NCBI GenBank assembly: GCA_963664115.2 | Contig: CAXWPJ010000012.1 | Span: forward strand, 256,001-320,000 | Reading direction: 5' to 3' | Length of the DNA stretch: 64,000 nucleotides | Source of the DNA: Terriglobia bacterium | GTDB taxonomy: Bacteria; Acidobacteriota; Terriglobia; 20CM-2-55-15 | Shown: piece by piece, positions 48,261-55,132 of the stretch | Layout: each line of letters begins with the position of its first letter | Position numbering within the stretch: the first letter of the stretch is position 1 | Position numbers and translations under genes: made by a program | The notes under the pieces: generated by a model | What the model was told of the DNA's origin: nothing | What the model saw: the letters and a program-made list of their open reading frames with translations, nothing else | The model's database searches: none

Positions 48261-48348
48261 CCAGCACGACAGTGCATATTACCCAGCACGACAGTGCATA
48301 TTACCCAGCACGACAGTGCATATTACCCAGCACGACAGTGCATATTAC
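48261..48348. repeat. Perfect tandem repeat, 4 x 22 bp (CCAGCACGACAGTGCATATTAC)
   Basis: Four identical contiguous units in the divergent ubiD/CHAT intergenic region. Confidence 0.97.
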
Positions 48349-48794
48349 AACGTAGCGCCAGAGCGCGACGGCTTTTCCGGAACCTAATTGAGGTCAAGCG
48401 TCACCTCCACTTCAGAGCGACCTCCGACGGCGGTGAGCGCTACTAAATCGCGATTTCGGCGAGGGTGCAACAAGCGCTTGGCATTTAATAAAGACACGCA
48501 GGCCATTTCCGGACTAATGCTCTGATCAACTCCTGCCGATATACCGACTAAGGGTATTTTCGGCCTGCACGAATCTGTGGGGATGCCTGTGTGGGACCAA
48601 AGCCCAGGGTGCGCACATATGCATATATATCAATTACATAGGAGAATTAATGGGCGCCAGAGCGCCCTCAGCAATAGCCCTAGGACTAAGCCGGTTTTTG
48701 GCACAGACGAATTTTTAGCGTTGCACCGGAATCGACGATGAAACAGAATGGAGCACCTTTCATGATGAAAGCAGCGAGATACACGGAGGGAACC

Positions 48795-51293
48795 GTGTCC
48801 AGCCCAGCACTTGAACTTGCGGAAAAGATCAGACAGACAGGACGTCGGTCACCGCAAGATCTCAATCCACTCATAGAACAAGCCGAAGAACTGGCTGCGA
48901 GCGCTACAGACGCGTTCACGCGTGCTGTCTCGATTCGAGCTGCTGGGAACGCGCATCAACTCCTGAACAATTTCACAGCCGCACTGGAGCGATACGATCA
49001 GGCAATCAAGCTCTTTGAAAGCACGAGCGATCAGGCTCAAGTCGGTCGCACCTTGCTGGCCAAAGTTGGCCTGCTGTTTTACCTCAGCCGCTTCGACGAA
49101 CTCTTCGAATGCGCCCGCGTCGCTCAGGGTCTTTTTGAGGACCAGAAAGACGAAGCAGCTCTCGCACGCCTGAGAGTGAACCTCGGCAACGCCTACCAAC
49201 GATTGGACCGGTATCACGAAGCACTGGACTGCTACGAAAAAGCCTTTCCGGTGTTGGAACGCCTTGACGACAGCGAAGGCCTTTTGGCGTCGTCGTTGAA
49301 CGCTGCCGTCGTGTTGACGATACTCCATCAGTTCGACCGGGCCGACGAGAAGTACAACCAGGCGTCGAACCTGGCCCAGGGTCTCGGCATGGATGCGATC
49401 GCGCTTCAGAGCCGATACAACCGAACATACCTGAGTTACCTGAAGGGCGACAGTGGTGTCGCTCTGCGCGGTATGCTCGCGCTCAAGAACGAATTCGAGC
49501 AAAAAGGTGACGACAACCACGTCTGCCTCTGCTGGCTGGACGAGGCCGAGATGCTCCTGGAATTGGGAGACCTTCCCGAATCGATCCAATCCGCCCGCGA
49601 GGCTCGTCGCCTGGGCAAGAAACTTGGCTTGAACTACGAAATTGGAAAATCTCTTCTGTTCGAGGCAGCCGCGTCATTGCGTACGGGCCAGGAAACTCAC
49701 GCCCAGGACCTACTGACCGATGCGATGAAACGCTTCGAGTCGGAAGGCAATAGCGTCTGGACAGCTGTATCTCGACTCCAGGCCGCTCTGTTCCGCGGGG
49801 AACAGGGCCAGATTCAGGCCCTGAGGGAGGCCACCAGCGCCCGGCAGTTGCTCGAAAGCAGCTCTCTACCGGACCGGTTAGCGCTCGCCGACATCGTCAT
49901 TGGCCGTATTCAGCGGGTGAGGGGCAACGCCAGCTGTGCCGTCGATTCGTTCGAATCCGCCGTGCGCCTGGCCAAGGAAAGCAAGTCCGAGTGGATGCAG
50001 TTCCATGCGGCGCACGAGCTGGGCGTGTCGCTATCGGGAACCGACACGAAGAAGAGCCGGATGCACGTCCAGAAGGCTGAAGCCATGCTCGATTCGCTGT
50101 GGCACAGGATCGGATCAGACGACCTCAAAATGGCTTTCCTGAACGATAGAGAAACCGTGTACAGCCACCTGATCACGAACGTCGCACCAATTTCGGTTGA
50201 TGAAGCCTTCCGCTTGTCCGAGCGGGCCCGCTCCAGAGTTCTCGTCGAGCGCCTTGCAGCCGATGGGGAGCGCGTGACCACAGAAGACATTCCAACCCGG
50301 CTGGACCCGGGCGAGACCATCGTTGAATACTTCATCTCCGGAAACGACGTTTACATCTTTGTCATCGACCGGAATGGATTGGAATGGGTGCATCGCCCCG
50401 GAATCGCAGCCGAAATGGAGCAGGAATGGACGCATCTGGAGCGTCATCTGGTCAGTTGCAGCGTCAAGTGGGAACAGCTGAGCCGGATTTCACAACATCT
50501 CGAACGCACGGCACACGTGCATCTCCGATCGCTTTACGATGGTCTGATTAAGCCTGTGCAGGATCACCTCGGCCGGAATCTCATCATCGTGCCCCACGGG
50601 TTCCTGCACGGCATCCCCTTTCATGCGCTTCACGACGGAAACGCATACCTTTCAGAACATCATTCGATTGTCTATAGCCCCAGCGCAACACTCTACGTGA
50701 CGCCACCGACCGAAGAACCCGACGGGCCACCCCTGTTTGTGGCGTTCTCGACTGATGCCGAAGAAGGCATTGTCAAAGAGGTGGAGCAAACGGCTAGAGG
50801 TTTCACAGACGCAACGGTTCTCGTCAACCCTACGGTGGACGAACTGAGAGATGAGATGAACCACTACCGGCCGCTGCTCCACATTGCGGGACATGCAGGC
50901 ATCGATCCGATTCGGGGATCCTTGTCGTGGCTGGAAACCTCGAACGGAAAACTCACGAGCCGGGATCTCATGGACATGCAGTTTCGAGCGGGTACCGTCG
51001 TAGTGACCGGCTGCCACACCGCACGGCGCAACATTTCTGCGGGAGACGAGTGGCTCGGACTGATGCGTGCCTTCTATCTTTCCGGAGCGCACACGATCGT
51101 CTCAGCCTACTGGGCGATCCGGGATGAATCGGCACAGCTGTTTTCGAAAACATTTTATAAACATTATGACGGCACAAACGCGTCGGAAGCGGTAACGGCC
51201 GCAAGCGATACGATTCGAAAAGCATCGCCGCACCCGTATTTCTGGGGCGGTTTTGGAACCTTCGCTCGCAAGCGAAGAGGAGATTCAAAATGA
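48795..51293 (+). CDS. TPR-CHAT (caspase HetF associated with TPR) cysteine protease
   Basis: N-terminal TPR-like helical repeats; SERARSR, IVEYF, IIVPHGFLHGIPFHAL, LHIAGHAG (His), VTGCHT (Cys), AYWAIRD and HPYFWGGF motifs. GTG at 48795 follows GGAGGG; an alternative ATG is at 48738. Confidence 0.92.
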   Translation: MSSPALELAEKIRQTGRRSPQDLNPLIEQAEELAASATDAFTRAVSIRAAGNAHQLLNNFTAALERYDQAIKLFESTSDQAQVGRTLLAKVGLLFYLSRFDELFECARVAQGLFEDQKDEAALARLRVNLGNAYQRLDRYHEALDCYEKAFPVLERLDDSEGLLASSLNAAVVLTILHQFDRADEKYNQASNLAQGLGMDAIALQSRYNRTYLSYLKGDSGVALRGMLALKNEFEQKGDDNHVCLCWLDEAEMLLELGDLPESIQSAREARRLGKKLGLNYEIGKSLLFEAAASLRTGQETHAQDLLTDAMKRFESEGNSVWTAVSRLQAALFRGEQGQIQALREATSARQLLESSSLPDRLALADIVIGRIQRVRGNASCAVDSFESAVRLAKESKSEWMQFHAAHELGVSLSGTDTKKSRMHVQKAEAMLDSLWHRIGSDDLKMAFLNDRETVYSHLITNVAPISVDEAFRLSERARSRVLVERLAADGERVTTEDIPTRLDPGETIVEYFISGNDVYIFVIDRNGLEWVHRPGIAAEMEQEWTHLERHLVSCSVKWEQLSRISQHLERTAHVHLRSLYDGLIKPVQDHLGRNLIIVPHGFLHGIPFHALHDGNAYLSEHHSIVYSPSATLYVTPPTEEPDGPPLFVAFSTDAEEGIVKEVEQTARGFTDATVLVNPTVDELRDEMNHYRPLLHIAGHAGIDPIRGSLSWLETSNGKLTSRDLMDMQFRAGTVVVTGCHTARRNISAGDEWLGLMRAFYLSGAHTIVSAYWAIRDESAQLFSKTFYKHYDGTNASEAVTAASDTIRKASPHPYFWGGFGTFARKRRGDSK

Positions 51294-51712
51294 AGCACGA
51301 CGTTGTCGAAATTCGAGGTTCATTGCTGTTCGATTCCTGGTTCGGCGAGATCCCCCGGGTACGTGAAACCGCATTGGAAGACCGCCATCTCATATACGAA
51401 GGTGGTGGCGTAATCCTCGATCTGCTGGTGAGACGGTCGAACGGCGATCCATGCCTTCACGTCGGAGGACAGGTTTTGCCCGACAACGATTCGCTTGAAA
51501 GCGTCGCAAATGTCCCGGTCATGATTCAAAGAGGACGCGAAGAAACCGCGACTCGGACGAATCCGGTCGGGGAGTTCATGTTTCACACCGGGTCGAACGG
51601 AGATTTCGACCTGACAATCCTTCTGCGCGACCAGCGCTTCGTCGTCCGGGGACTTTCCGGTAACGACCCGCGCGAGTGGCAGTTGGCTTATTCCACGGAT
51701 GGAGAACGTTAA
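51290..51712 (+). CDS. Small beta-rich hypothetical protein of the type found beside CHAT proteases
   Basis: ATGA overlap with the CHAT gene; LLFDSW, RHLIY, LDL, GQVL and TNPVGEFMF motifs. Confidence 0.75.
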   Translation: MKHDVVEIRGSLLFDSWFGEIPRVRETALEDRHLIYEGGGVILDLLVRRSNGDPCLHVGGQVLPDNDSLESVANVPVMIQRGREETATRTNPVGEFMFHTGSNGDFDLTILLRDQRFVVRGLSGNDPREWQLAYSTDGER

Positions 51713-51714
51713 CA

Positions 51715-53397
51715 ATGATGAAACGTACTTTACTAACGCTGCTAGTGAGCGCATGCCTAGTCTCTGGTGGTTTGGCGGCAGGCGCTCAGAACCTAATCGT
51801 CCAGGCCAAAGATGAGAAGACCATCAAACGGATCCAGAAGAAATACGGAGCTCAACTCCTGGGGCAGATCAATGGCCAGGACGGCCAGGGCATCTTCCAA
51901 ATTCAGATCGACGATAGCAAAAAAGGGGAAAAAGGCAAGTCCAGTAAGCAGATCAAAGGCCAGGACATCTCCAAAATTCAGATCGACGATGGCAAAAAAG
52001 GCAAAAAAGGTAAGTCCAGTAAGAGCACCAAGGAACTCGACAAGCTGATCAAAGAAATCCTGAATGAAAAAGGCATAGTCAGCGTTGAGCCGAACTATCC
52101 GCTCTCAGTCGACGCCGGTGTTGGTCCTGACTTGGAATGGTCGGTCATGTCCCTGTTCTGGAGCGTCATGTCGCTGTTCGGGGAAAAGACGCCGACCGAC
52201 TTCTACGGGACTGAGGTGATCGAAGGATACGCGAATCAGCCGGCTCTCGACGTCATCCATGCCTCCGACATTCGCTCTGTATCGACTGGCGCTGGCACAC
52301 GGGTCGCCTTCATCGACACCGGTGTCGATCCAGACCACCCTGCTCTGCGTCCCTGGATCGACGAAGGGATAGATCTGCTGGGAACGGGCTTGGCCTCGGA
52401 ATTGAGCGGCCTGGACTGGTCGGTCATGTCGCTGTTCGAAGACACGGTGCGCATCTTCAAGCGCGGGCTCGGCCTGGATTGGTCCGTCATGTCCTTGTTC
52501 CTCGAACACCTGGAAAAACTTGGACTGGATTGGTCCGTCATGTCTCTTTTTTCCGATCAGTTGCAGAAGCTCGGCGTCGACCTGGACTGGTCCGTCATGT
52601 CTCTCTTTTGGTCCGTCATGTCTCTCTTCTCCGACGACGTAGAAACACTCGATCTGGACTGGTCCGTCATGTCTCTCTTCTCTGAAGAAGTGGAGCAACT
52701 CAACCTCGATTGGTCGGTCATGTCACTGTTTGGCGATGCCGATGGGAACGCCGGAGGGGGGATGCCTGCAAAATTCGGTCATGGGACTCTCGTCGCCGGC
52801 CTGATCCACGCCGTGGCCCCTGAAGCCCAGCTGGTCCCCGTCCGTGCGTTTGACCCTTACAGCAACTCGACCCTGTTCTTGGCAACCGCTGCTGTATATG
52901 CGGCTGTTGACCTAGACGTCGACGTTATCAATATGAGCTTTTCGATCGGAACGGACTCCGCCGCTTTCCAGAGTGCCCTCAACTACGCTTGGTCCCAGGG
53001 CGTCACGCTGGTCGCTTCCGTCGGGAACGACGGCATCGATGCGGGCGACATTTACCCTGCAGCCTACCCCAAGGTAATCGGCGTCGCGGCTACGAATCTG
53101 GAGGACCAAATCACATCGTTTTCCAATTTCGGAAAGACTGTCGATGTTACGGCTCCCGGGGAGATCGTCTCCACCTATCCGGGAGGTTTGTATGCACGAG
53201 CCTCGGGAACGTCGTTCAGCGCGCCTATGGTCAGCGGATCAGTTGCTCTGCTCGCCTCGTTGGGTAAGAGAAACAAAGCCGCCGCACAAACAGTCGTGAA
53301 CACGGCCGACTCGGTCTACGAGTCCAATCCAGACCTCTTTAGACAAGCGCTCGGACAAGGCCGAGTCAATCTGTTGAACGCATTAGGTGTGAATTAG
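51715..53397 (+). CDS. Secreted S8 subtilisin-like protease containing nine WSVMSLF repeats
   Basis: Signal peptide MMKRTLL...AAGA; triad FIDTG / GHGT / GTSFS; oxyanion SVGN; VINMSF motif. Confidence 0.93.
   Translation: MMKRTLLTLLVSACLVSGGLAAGAQNLIVQAKDEKTIKRIQKKYGAQLLGQINGQDGQGIFQIQIDDSKKGEKGKSSKQIKGQDISKIQIDDGKKGKKGKSSKSTKELDKLIKEILNEKGIVSVEPNYPLSVDAGVGPDLEWSVMSLFWSVMSLFGEKTPTDFYGTEVIEGYANQPALDVIHASDIRSVSTGAGTRVAFIDTGVDPDHPALRPWIDEGIDLLGTGLASELSGLDWSVMSLFEDTVRIFKRGLGLDWSVMSLFLEHLEKLGLDWSVMSLFSDQLQKLGVDLDWSVMSLFWSVMSLFSDDVETLDLDWSVMSLFSEEVEQLNLDWSVMSLFGDADGNAGGGMPAKFGHGTLVAGLIHAVAPEAQLVPVRAFDPYSNSTLFLATAAVYAAVDLDVDVINMSFSIGTDSAAFQSALNYAWSQGVTLVASVGNDGIDAGDIYPAAYPKVIGVAATNLEDQITSFSNFGKTVDVTAPGEIVSTYPGGLYARASGTSFSAPMVSGSVALLASLGKRNKAAAQTVVNTADSVYESNPDLFRQALGQGRVNLLNALGVN
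52138..52731 (+). repeat. Nine in-frame 21-nt repeats encoding WSVMSLF
   Basis: Copies start at 52138, 52159, 52417, 52480, 52531, 52588, 52609, 52660 and 52711. Confidence 0.97.
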
Positions 53398-54492
53398 ATG
53401 CAAGCTAAGATGGCAATATCCAAATCGGAAGTCAGTCTGATCGGGCGCTTCGGGTACTCGGTTCTCGAAGCGCCGGACATCCGCTCGGTCGTGGCTGAAG
53501 CGCTCCGGATTCTACGGAGATTAACTCCGGCTAAGGAGGTAAGGGTTGTATATTATTCCGCATCACGCTGGAAAGAATGGCATGCGACCGGGCAGCAGGT
53601 CCGGGAATTCGACTATGACGAGTGGCCATCGCCCTCACCAGCCGCCGAAACTGTAAGGTTAGAAACGAGCAAGGACCAATACGGATTCGTCTCGATCAGT
53701 CCGGCGGCGCCAGACAACAGATGGGTCCTCGAGCTGATGGCACCCCATATTTCGGCCGCGCTGACCTTGAAGTCAGCCATTCGCAGGGCACAAAACACAG
53801 CGCAGTCGGAAACCGAGCTCGTGCGGATCACCTTGCGCGCTCGAGAGGATGAACGCCGCCGGATTACGCACGAACTCCATGACGATGTCGGCCAGACGAT
53901 CGCCGTGCTGAAGCTGAAACTCAAGGTCCTTCAGAACCGGATCCAGAAGAACGGATCCAATCCGGAAACGGTCGAGGAGTTGACCGAGGCGCGCAAGAGC
54001 GTCGGTTTACTCTTGTCGAAGATACGGGACGTCTCTCACACGCTATACCCCAGGATTCTGGACACGATGGGCTTTGTACCTGCTTTGCAGGAACTGGTCA
54101 GCCAGGTATCCACGCCGTCCGAAATCGATGCGCGTTGCACCGTTCGTGGAAAGCCGAGTCCCATGGACAAAGACACCACAGTTTCACTCTACCGCTGTTG
54201 CCAGGAGGCCATCAGCAACGCGATCCGTCACTCAGGAGCCTCAACACTTGAGGTTCGTATTTATTTTTCCGACACGCAGGTTCGGGCGGTCATCGAAGAC
54301 GACGGCCGGGGATTCGATCCCCGTCGCTTTTATGATTCCAGTGGCAAGCTGATGAGCTCCGGCTTCTGGACCGTTCGTCAAAGGATGAATGATGTGAATG
54401 GGTCCTTCCGGATCGGCACGGCCATAGGGAAGGGAACCTCGATTGAAATGATCGTACCTTTAAGGATGAAAGATGACGACAATGACCAGTGA
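53398..54492 (+). CDS. Soluble HisKA_3-type (NarX/DesK-like) sensor histidine kinase
   Basis: EDERRRITHELHDDVGQ H-box; QEAISNAIRHS N-box; EDDGRGFD; no TM segments; short GAF-like N-terminal region. Confidence 0.92.
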   Translation: MQAKMAISKSEVSLIGRFGYSVLEAPDIRSVVAEALRILRRLTPAKEVRVVYYSASRWKEWHATGQQVREFDYDEWPSPSPAAETVRLETSKDQYGFVSISPAAPDNRWVLELMAPHISAALTLKSAIRRAQNTAQSETELVRITLRAREDERRRITHELHDDVGQTIAVLKLKLKVLQNRIQKNGSNPETVEELTEARKSVGLLLSKIRDVSHTLYPRILDTMGFVPALQELVSQVSTPSEIDARCTVRGKPSPMDKDTTVSLYRCCQEAISNAIRHSGASTLEVRIYFSDTQVRAVIEDDGRGFDPRRFYDSSGKLMSSGFWTVRQRMNDVNGSFRIGTAIGKGTSIEMIVPLRMKDDDNDQ

Positions 54493-55132
54493 AAAAATAC
54501 GCCTGTTGATCGCCGACGATCACACGATTCTGAGACAGGGACTTCGCCGCATTCTGGAAGAAGAGCACGACATGGAAGTTGTTGGAGAAGCGGCGACCGG
54601 GACCGATGCGGTCACCCTGGCCGAGGAACTCCAACCCGACATCGTCATCATGGATATTTCGATGCCGGGCCAGAACGGGATCGAGAGTACCCGTCAGATC
54701 TCGATGCAAGGTGACTCGCGGGTCCTGGTTTTGACGGTTCATCTTGAACGACAGGTGATCGCCAACGCGGTGACTGCCGGTGCCTCGGGATACCTCCTGA
54801 AGGATTCGCTCGACGATCAGTTGCTGACAGCCGTGCGCACGATCCATGAAGGGGGGGCCGTGTTCTCCCCGGACGTGACCAAAATTCTTGCCAATCTCGA
54901 ACCCACCGACAAAGCATCAGAGCGCACTCTGGATCTGTTAACACCTCGAGAAAAGGAAGTGTTCTATCTCCTGGCGGACGGCAAGGCCTCGGCCGCAATC
55001 GCCGACCTGTTGTTCGTCAGCCCCAAAACCATCCATACCCACCGGCAACACATCATGGACAAGCTCGGGTTACGGACGATCGGAGAGTTGATCCGTTACG
55101 CCATTCGCGAAGGCCTGGTCAACGACGCCTGA
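54473..55132 (+). CDS. NarL/LuxR-family response regulator
   Basis: LIADDH, MDISMP (phospho-Asp) and GYLLK motifs; LTPREKEV...SPKTIHTHRQHIMDKL HTH. Alternative start at 54482. Confidence 0.95.
   Translation: MTTMTSEKIRLLIADDHTILRQGLRRILEEEHDMEVVGEAATGTDAVTLAEELQPDIVIMDISMPGQNGIESTRQISMQGDSRVLVLTVHLERQVIANAVTAGASGYLLKDSLDDQLLTAVRTIHEGGAVFSPDVTKILANLEPTDKASERTLDLLTPREKEVFYLLADGKASAAIADLLFVSPKTIHTHRQHIMDKLGLRTIGELIRYAIREGLVNDA

Follow-up and report, generated by a model that had tools for sequence, protein, structure and literature searches.

A five-gene cassette between ubiD and carB

We analysed a stretch of 64,000 nucleotides from a Terriglobia bacterium of the Acidobacteriota (contig CAXWPJ010000012.1, positions 256,001 to 320,000; hereafter the window), in which five plus-strand genes lie between a divergent ubiD and a convergent carB. 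They encode a protein combining tetratricopeptide repeats with a CHAT protease domain (TPR-CHAT), a 140-aa protein, a subtilase of family S8 that contains nine copies of the peptide WSVMSLF, a HisKA_3 histidine kinase and a NarL/LuxR-type response regulator (Table 1). Comparison with other genomes and with metagenome contigs showed that the five genes are a real, conserved cassette, and that its kinase-regulator pair stands where other acidobacteria carry a sigma factor of the extracytoplasmic function (ECF) group.

A preliminary description of the window had reported five co-oriented, tightly packed genes, and the open reading frames lie where it placed them (48795-55132). Taken in order, the genes overlap by 4 nt, stand 2 nt apart, abut directly and overlap by 20 nt, the last of these overlaps becoming 11 nt if the regulator starts at the next ATG. 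The dyad and the triad that it took to be intact could be located, as H719/C759 of the CHAT domain and D201/H356/S500 of the subtilase, and so could oxyanion residue N438 of the subtilase, H161 of the kinase and D61 of the regulator. The TPR-CHAT gene has an alternative in-frame ATG at 48738; because homologues share a ribosome-binding site ahead of the GTG at 48795, this GTG is the likely start. Residue numbers of this protein (H719, C759 and the TPR ladder) nevertheless count from the ATG at 48738. Among the five proteins, only the subtilase has a hydrophobic N-terminal stretch. In one RNA run a fraction of 0.06 of the words was present, and its contigs touch the cassette in two short pieces, which may be DNA.

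Table 1. Features of the cassette (window coordinates) and of the stand-alone pairs in relatives (locus coordinates)
Feature	Position	Strand	Remarks
TPR-CHAT gene	48795(GTG)-51293	+	832 aa from GTG; Pfam CHAT (E 1e-40), TPR_12
140-aa protein gene	51290-51712	+	no Pfam match
S8 pre-pro-subtilase gene	51715-53397	+	Pfam Peptidase_S8
Histidine kinase gene	53398-54492	+	Pfam HisKA_3 and HATPase_c
NarL/LuxR-type response regulator gene	54473-55132	+	Pfam Response_reg and GerE; D61
WSVMSLF copies 1-2	52138..52179	+	in tandem, after the prodomain and ahead of the part equivalent to mature thermitase
WSVMSLF copies 3-9	52417..52731	+	insertion between catalytic Asp and His; starts 52417, 52480, 52531, 52588, 52609, 52660, 52711
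Conserved upstream element	48669..48699	+	CCTAGG core 48679-48684, then GGnTTTT tract
Stand-alone pair	L016:2967-4023
Stand-alone pair	L017:2358-3390
Stand-alone pair	L019:10745-11779
Stand-alone pair	L096:2807 onward

Conservation of the cassette

The subtilase query found matches in 20 of 41 genomes, and in 15 of the 24 from the window's family. Gene order was examined in 20 regions surrounding the strongest matches. The succession of TPR-CHAT, 140-aa protein, S8, HisKA_3 kinase and NarL regulator occurs in 10 of the 24 family-level relatives (G005, G007, G008, G010, G013, G017, G020, G021, G023 and G024), so the co-occurrence on which the preliminary description had staked its operon is borne out, also on metagenome contigs. 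One further relative (G018) has the first three genes only, the copy of G023 carries frameshifts, and four genomes of the window's own genus gave no match to the subtilase query. Records of close homologues are titled Terriglobia, Solibacteraceae or Acidobacteria.

For neighbourhood counts, 53 metagenome loci were added to the genome loci. Around homologues of the 140-aa protein with room on the relevant side, a CHAT gene lies upstream in 47 of 56 cases and an S8 gene downstream in 46 of 50; where enough contig was available, subtilase, kinase and regulator were found together in 28 of 30 neighbourhoods and the complete set in 23 of 28 (in one of the remaining five, a windowing error hid a CHAT gene that is actually present). 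Two stand-alone copies (L016 and L017) had too little room to enter the last two counts, and the rows are not independent, since paralogues and near-identical contigs are included. Each kinase-type cassette bears its own repeated peptide, and the tandem double cassettes of G007 and G017 carry different peptides within one genome. Transposase genes were seen between tandem cassette copies (L017:10540-11958, L041:3335-7534), once at the expected position of TPR-CHAT.

Sigma-type relatives and the ECF54 context

In more distant acidobacterial loci, the same three genes are accompanied by an ECF sigma factor. Of the loci whose TPR-CHAT is long, 23 have a kinase and none of these a sigma factor, whereas 39 have a sigma factor and none of these a kinase. 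The sigma-type loci include an S8 gene in 35 cases, the small protein in 38, an HD-domain protein in 9 and an SBP_bac_5 binding protein in 7. In a sample of the phylum, 25 of 301 genomes gave a strong TPR-CHAT match, and no kinase was present at any of the 30 loci examined from it. The HD_5 protein of the nine loci (L027, L028, L029, L032, L033, L035, L135, L137 and L142) usually follows directly behind S8, which is the place of the kinase in the five-gene type.

A subtilase, a carboxypeptidase-regulatory-like protein and a TPR-CHAT protein make up the gene context of the sigma factor group ECF54 of Actinobacteria, for which proteolytic regulation has been proposed and is, by those texts, untested (PMC7826278, Casas-Pastor et al. 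2021; PMC8999054). A target promoter with GTATCAG and CTCC elements has been predicted for the group. The core of TPR-CHAT, small beta-sandwich protein and subtilase is this catalogued context.

The genome under study also encodes a sigma-type cassette of its own (L103:9502-13757; G000:C9, about 414500-418760, minus strand), with an ECF sigma factor, a 205-aa partner bearing a zinc motif and a 944-aa TPR-CHAT. It lacks an S8, and two oligopeptide ABC ATPase genes and then tgt come immediately after it. This cassette could provide an orphan receptor for peptides from outside.

The subtilase and its repeated peptide

The features of the S8 family are all present in the cassette subtilase, including an I9-like prodomain, and its structure model matches thermitase and pro-subtilisin E. 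Its Sec signal peptide, already listed in the preliminary description, is predicted by pattern from the hydrophobic N-terminus; a signal-like N-terminus is found in 100 of 108 homologues. With a lipobox in only 3 of the 108, we rejected the possibility of a lipoprotein.

All nine WSVMSLF copies reported earlier were recovered, and the peptide is encoded nowhere else in the 4.9-Mb genome. Alignment to solved subtilisins and the structure model place two copies after the prodomain and the other seven in the interval from the catalytic Asp to the catalytic His, where they replace the loop ahead of the His. The prodomain and catalytic domain are modelled with confidence, most of the repeats are not, and these appear mostly as low-confidence helices. 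Tandem copies without a spacer set the unit size at seven residues, and a reading of the window insertion revealed no additional degenerate copy. The nine copies have eight different DNA spellings, including a TCN/AGC serine switch (proportion of silent differences, pS, 0.71), and across 12 S8 genes the copies within a gene show pS of 0.51-0.91 and a proportion of replacement differences (pN) of 0-0.16; since copies were chosen by pattern, pN is biased down, and for the window gene it is fixed at zero. Recent duplication of DNA was rejected as the origin of the repeats, as the copies differ at silent sites. An assembly artefact was rejected as well, because contigs of three public runs from three studies (X2, X5 and X6, one of which may be the source of the assembly) span the repeat region with no differing letters.

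A five-residue word is repeated at least three times in 74 of 120 S8 homologues. The motif is specific to the locus (WSVMSLF, QSVMSLF, QSTMSLF, QSLIWLF, QAMASLL, QDMMSLL, HAMSDLL), the copy behind the prodomain usually has the same motif as the inserted copies of the same protein, and copy number differs between close strains. The peptide thus varies between loci, as the preliminary description had proposed to test, and is near-identical within each gene. Its specificity to the locus, combined with mostly silent differences among the copies of any one gene, suggests that something reads the peptide. Among distant S8 proteins, 12 of 26 have a short motif duplicated at the same position behind the prodomain, with only 41-47 residues between Asp and His; this position therefore looks ancestral, and the insertion may be an amplification.

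Some further variants deserve mention. One distant S8 group (L120-L131) carries after its prodomain, and nowhere else, two copies of a tryptophan-containing motif of six residues (GRSWAV or GISWSI, for instance), and several small partner proteins in this group are without the zinc motif. The S8 genes of L018:9521-10861 and of the proteins P0038, P0040 and P0046 have lost, in frame, the stretch that runs from the junction repeat up to the inserted repeats and holds the catalytic Asp; the near-identical P0027 is intact. In the window, the prodomain contains a duplicated lysine-rich stretch of ~25 residues (about 51900-52030), disordered in the model and polymorphic between runs.

The TPR-CHAT protein as a candidate receptor

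The CHAT domain has the His-Cys dyad of its family; H719 and C759 align with the dyad of Csx29, and each is kept in 34 of 35 aligned homologues. An Asn/Arg ladder runs through the TPR part, with R144, N148 and R155 in 35/35 homologues, N188 in 34/35 and N228 in 32/35. The closest solved TPR structures are those of LGN/GPSM2, whose TPRs bind extended peptides. Rap receptors use a conserved Asn to anchor the backbone of their peptide (PMC11343458). We take the cassette TPR-CHAT to be a soluble caspase-like protease and a predicted peptide receptor: its invariant ladder, like that of peptide-binding TPRs, lends indirect support to the role given to it in the preliminary description. In a complex prediction, TPR-CHAT with a 32-residue stretch containing two repeats scored 0.01, which speaks neither for nor against binding. 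A third TPR-CHAT protein of the genome (765 aa, L104:5938-8235; G000:C12, minus strand) is unrelated and has no cassette partners in the 12 kb around it.

Variation of the peptide was compared with that of the other parts in 16 kinase-type cassettes (19 aligned, three near-duplicates dropped), which are kin and not independent. Peptide distance correlated with that of TPR residues 25-250 (partial r 0.39, p 0.002), and the same partial test gave r 0.41 for the N-terminal domain of the kinase and r 0.38 for the kinase core. With the rest of the protein controlled, the signal localised to CHAT residues 85-264 (r 0.35, p 0.001, the best of 13 overlapping windows), and in nine distant kinase-type cassettes this segment gave r 0.50 (p 0.008). 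Nearest neighbours chosen by TPR 25-250 in those nine had the best possible peptide match, with 1.67 mismatches versus 2.0-2.67 for other parts. Across 15 cassettes of the sigma type, CHAT tracked the peptide weakly, with a peak at residues 25-144 (r 0.26, p 0.016); for the S8 catalytic domain, r was 0.41. At the level of single columns, mutual information returned no credible pairs of peptide and TPR residues. These alignments are suggestive of an N-terminal TPR that modestly tracks the repeat peptide.

The 140-aa partner protein

The model of the 140-aa protein has a mean predicted local distance difference test (pLDDT) of 75.7, with residues 7-27 below 50, and fold searches returned generic Ig-like matches only (Z at most 7.4); as modelled, it is a soluble Ig-like beta-sandwich. 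Profile comparison by hhalign related it to the long form of the small protein in the genome's own sigma-linked cassette with 98.3% probability. That long form matches CarboxypepD_reg at E 4.6e-5, below the curated cut-off, and another long form does pass it. By remote homology only, the 140-aa protein appears to be a short form of the carboxypeptidase-regulatory-like partner of ECF54-type cassettes.

The motif HxxxCxxC, which marks zinc-binding anti-sigma domains, is present in 31 of 41 sigma-linked small proteins versus none of 64 short forms; two of the sigma-linked proteins also have weak zf-HC2 matches. The 140-aa protein and the response regulator exist in addition as a separate two-gene unit. 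That the zinc motif occurs only with a sigma factor, together with the separate pairing with a response regulator, ties the small protein to the transcription factor. Such stand-alone pairs of 140-aa protein and NarL regulator lie behind the cassette in several relatives, mostly with a CCTAGG element of their own (Table 1).

The 140-aa protein is predicted to be a substrate or adaptor of the CHAT protease. Its invariant R25 sits in the low-confidence N-terminal arm, which in the long forms separates the zinc motif from the sandwich. Since separases cleave after arginine (PMC11506125), R25 is a candidate cut site; by this analogy it is a guess, and craspases cut elsewhere. Longer fused forms of the protein were absent among 8000 candidates of 259-2000 residues, which is weak evidence.

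The kinase, the regulator and a conserved upstream element

Both partners have the features of a HisKA_3/NarL two-component system, with a phospho-acceptor His box and HATPase_c in the kinase, and a receiver Asp and LuxR-type helix-turn-helix in the regulator. As stated in the preliminary description, the kinase appears soluble, with no membrane segment by hydropathy. Its N-terminal domain of ~130 aa has no Pfam match; ESM Atlas gave GAF matches at 0.90, and a GAF-like fold is a lead only.

Ahead of the cassette lies an element with a CCTAGG core, placed in kinase-type loci at about -97 to -118 before the CHAT start. In 28 upstream regions of this type (34 minus six near-duplicates), the exact hexamer is found in the expected zone in 16 and, when one mismatch is allowed, in 23; of 100 control windows, one had the exact hexamer. 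A second count gave 17 of 27 kinase-type versus 0 of 39 sigma-type upstream regions. The element also precedes four of five stand-alone pairs of small protein and regulator, two of these being identical there. The genome has 138 copies of CCTAGG; a matrix built from 16 distant loci ranks the window site first of 9.8 million positions, by a thin margin (18.1 vs 18.0). From this distribution we infer that the element is the predicted binding site of the cassette's own response regulator, and autoregulation would follow from that assignment. Genome scans with the element gave no clear additional regulon sites, and no sigma-70 consensus promoter was found upstream of the cassette. A strict RcsAB-type palindrome (consensus in PMC4325325) was not supported, as best matches mostly had 3-4 mismatches of 10 and were barely better than controls.

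Between ubiD and the cassette, a 22-nt unit is repeated four times in tandem (48261-48348). Contigs of runs X5 and X6 are two copies shorter, a skip of 44 nt, which makes the array a variable tandem repeat.

A possible peptide-gated proteolytic switch and its alternatives

We propose that the cassette is a proteolytic switch gated by a peptide imported from outside, a reading to which we would give a probability of roughly 45%. The subtilase, predicted to be secreted, would set free the heptapeptide that it carries in many copies, and this, once imported, would bind in the TPR groove of the cytoplasmic TPR-CHAT. The CHAT protease, activated by the peptide, would act on the 140-aa partner and in this way alter how active the kinase and regulator are; these two probably control the promoter of the putative operon itself. 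Export, release, import, binding, substrate, direction of regulation and autoregulation are all steps that we infer. A wider and more tentative version, which we hold to be somewhat improbable, is that Acidobacteria have a peptide quorum-sensing family of their own, in which a secreted subtilase would be both precursor of a multi-copy pheromone and maturase, a peptide-activated TPR-CHAT the receptor, and a cut at the invariant arginine of the small beta-sandwich protein the route to an interchangeable output. Most lineages would use an ECF sigma factor with a zinc-finger anti-sigma domain as that output, and this lineage a soluble pair of kinase and regulator. The ECF54 module would thereby gain a first mechanism.

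Several observations weigh against an imported peptide read by TPR-CHAT. The kinase core follows the peptide roughly as closely as the TPR part (r 0.41-0.45), the trees of the cassette components are largely congruent and column-level covariation is dominated by a clade split, so co-evolution is suggested and not shown. The residue after the catalytic His is Ala, not Gly, in 29 of 35 homologues. In P0038, P0040 and P0046, the segment with the catalytic Asp has been lost by deletion between repeats; these may be broken copies or assembly errors, or catalysis by S8 may be dispensable. RNA contigs reach just two short pieces of the cassette. One locus (L025) has the three-gene core with kinase and regulator not nearby, and none of the 23 kinase-type loci has an importer beside it.

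The last point, together with the solubility of all the other parts and the hydrophobic nature of the peptide, also speaks for ligand and receptor meeting within one cell. TPR-CHAT would then read repeats of unexported S8, or the cell's own periplasmic fragments, and would keep watch on secretion or on proteolysis in the envelope; Sec export takes a protein of a diderm cell only as far as the periplasm. We regard this as rather unlikely, since locus-specific peptides and the differing tandem cassettes of G007 and G017 better fit identity signals, and Opp-type binding proteins adjoin 7 of the 39 sigma-type loci. The genome itself encodes Opp-like binding proteins and ATPases. It is less likely again that the repeats serve the subtilase itself, as self-cleavage or bait sites, in auto-inhibition or as a helical structural repeat, and that TPR-CHAT has a different input. 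The copies do lie beside the prodomain and on the loop ahead of the catalytic His, long forms have a period of ~17 residues and are modelled as helices, and the S8 catalytic domain of sigma-type loci is tracked by the peptide at the r of 0.41 given above, though both lie in one gene. Such a role fits poorly with a copy number of 1 to about 12 and a unit of 6 to about 20 residues, with spacers that vary while the heptamer stays constant, and with a low-confidence insertion and a last prodomain strand (residues 129-131) that lies ~ten residues before copy 1 in the model. Subtilisins are moreover broad in specificity and would not need seven identical residues.

The peptide might instead be sensed by the GAF-like domain of the kinase, with TPR-CHAT as a downstream target or degrading enzyme. 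This N-terminal domain varies more than any other part and follows the peptide in one test (the r of 0.41 above), as does the core in two; its signal disappears in the distant clade (r 0.04), and repeat-bearing S8 proteins pair with TPR-CHAT in the sigma-type loci, where a kinase is found in none of 39, so we consider it improbable. Most improbable of all appears a Craspase-like defence or threat response, set off by phage or damage and ending in growth arrest; a threat-response cascade had been named as an option in the preliminary description. Characterised bacterial CHAT proteases do act in defence (PMC10028731, PMC11506125, bioRxiv 2023.06.23.546230), and the cassette is patchy and often beside transposases. 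Yet we found no link to defence systems: PADLOC gave generic domain matches only, the Csx29 model NF041237 scored 67 against a cut-off of 300, the cassette has no toxin, nuclease or cas gene, and its neighbours are housekeeping genes.

If the imported-peptide switch is correct, a locus-specific peptide encoded by the cassette itself would gate a CHAT protease. The bacterial CHAT proteases that have been characterised answer to RNA or cyclic nucleotides in defence against phage, and the reach of these enzymes would extend to cell-to-cell signalling. It would also mean a peptide communication system in Acidobacteriota. On a practical level, the cassette opens the mechanism of the ECF54 module to direct tests, by offering a candidate ligand (WSVMSLF), a candidate receptor surface (TPR ~85-264), a candidate substrate (the 140-aa protein with R25) and a reporter (the CCTAGG promoter), with natural peptide variants as ready specificity controls.

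Comparison with known systems

A full-text search, with most subscription papers outside its reach, found no description of the kinase-type cassette or of the S8 repeats, and none of the papers found describes a peptide communication system in Acidobacteriota. The preliminary description had known of no characterised system with this architecture; this holds for the kinase-type variant, and the core has turned out to be catalogued.

A functional parallel may be the RRNPP(A) receptors (Rap-Phr, NprR, PlcR, AimR), which share with the cassette a cytoplasmic TPR part with a conserved Asn and short, sometimes repeated peptides in a Sec-exported precursor, matured by extracellular proteases, and of which the Raps act on response regulators (PMC11343458). 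In the cassette, however, the precursor is a 560-aa protease with nine copies, compared with a propeptide of 50-120 aa with 1-4 copies; small upstream open reading frames show no feature of a separate propeptide gene, and the peptide is present only in S8. The effector is a C-terminal CHAT domain instead of an N-terminal DNA- or protein-binding bundle, TPR-CHAT has no match to an HTH or Rap-type family, and the host is not one of the Bacillota.

For the protease step, the closest precedent is Csx29 of the type III-E Craspase, a TPR-CHAT protein with a His/Cys dyad that cleaves a sigma inhibitor, so that partner cleavage switches transcription (Csx29, Csx30, CASP-sigma; PMC10028731). The cassette differs in having no Cas7-11, Csx30 or CRISPR part, a peptide as its predicted trigger and a two-component output. 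The sigma-type relatives resemble DdvA-DdvS of Myxococcus xanthus, which likewise combines TPR-CHAT, a zinc-binding anti-sigma domain and an ECF sigma factor; DdvA is one membrane protein with a periplasmic TPR-CHAT, whereas TPR-CHAT is here soluble, separate and accompanied by a subtilase (PMC11506125). More distant are a type III-B cascade (bioRxiv 2023.06.23.546230) and fungal gasdermin clusters with S8 or CHAT proteases (PMC8851545).

In gene content, the cassette shares with ECF54 the neighbouring subtilase, TPR-CHAT and, by remote homology, carboxypeptidase-regulatory-like protein. It departs from that group in its host, Acidobacteriota instead of Actinobacteria, in the lack of an ECF sigma factor in the window and at all 23 kinase-type loci, which have the HisKA_3 kinase and NarL regulator instead, and in a subtilase with a predicted signal peptide and repeated peptides, neither of which the accessible parts of the ECF54 texts mention. 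The cassette thus lies outside the RRNPP and Craspase families and, strictly, outside ECF54. It is a kinase-regulator variant of a catalogued sigma-factor module, and that it works like an RRNPP circuit with a protease as effector is plausible though unproven.

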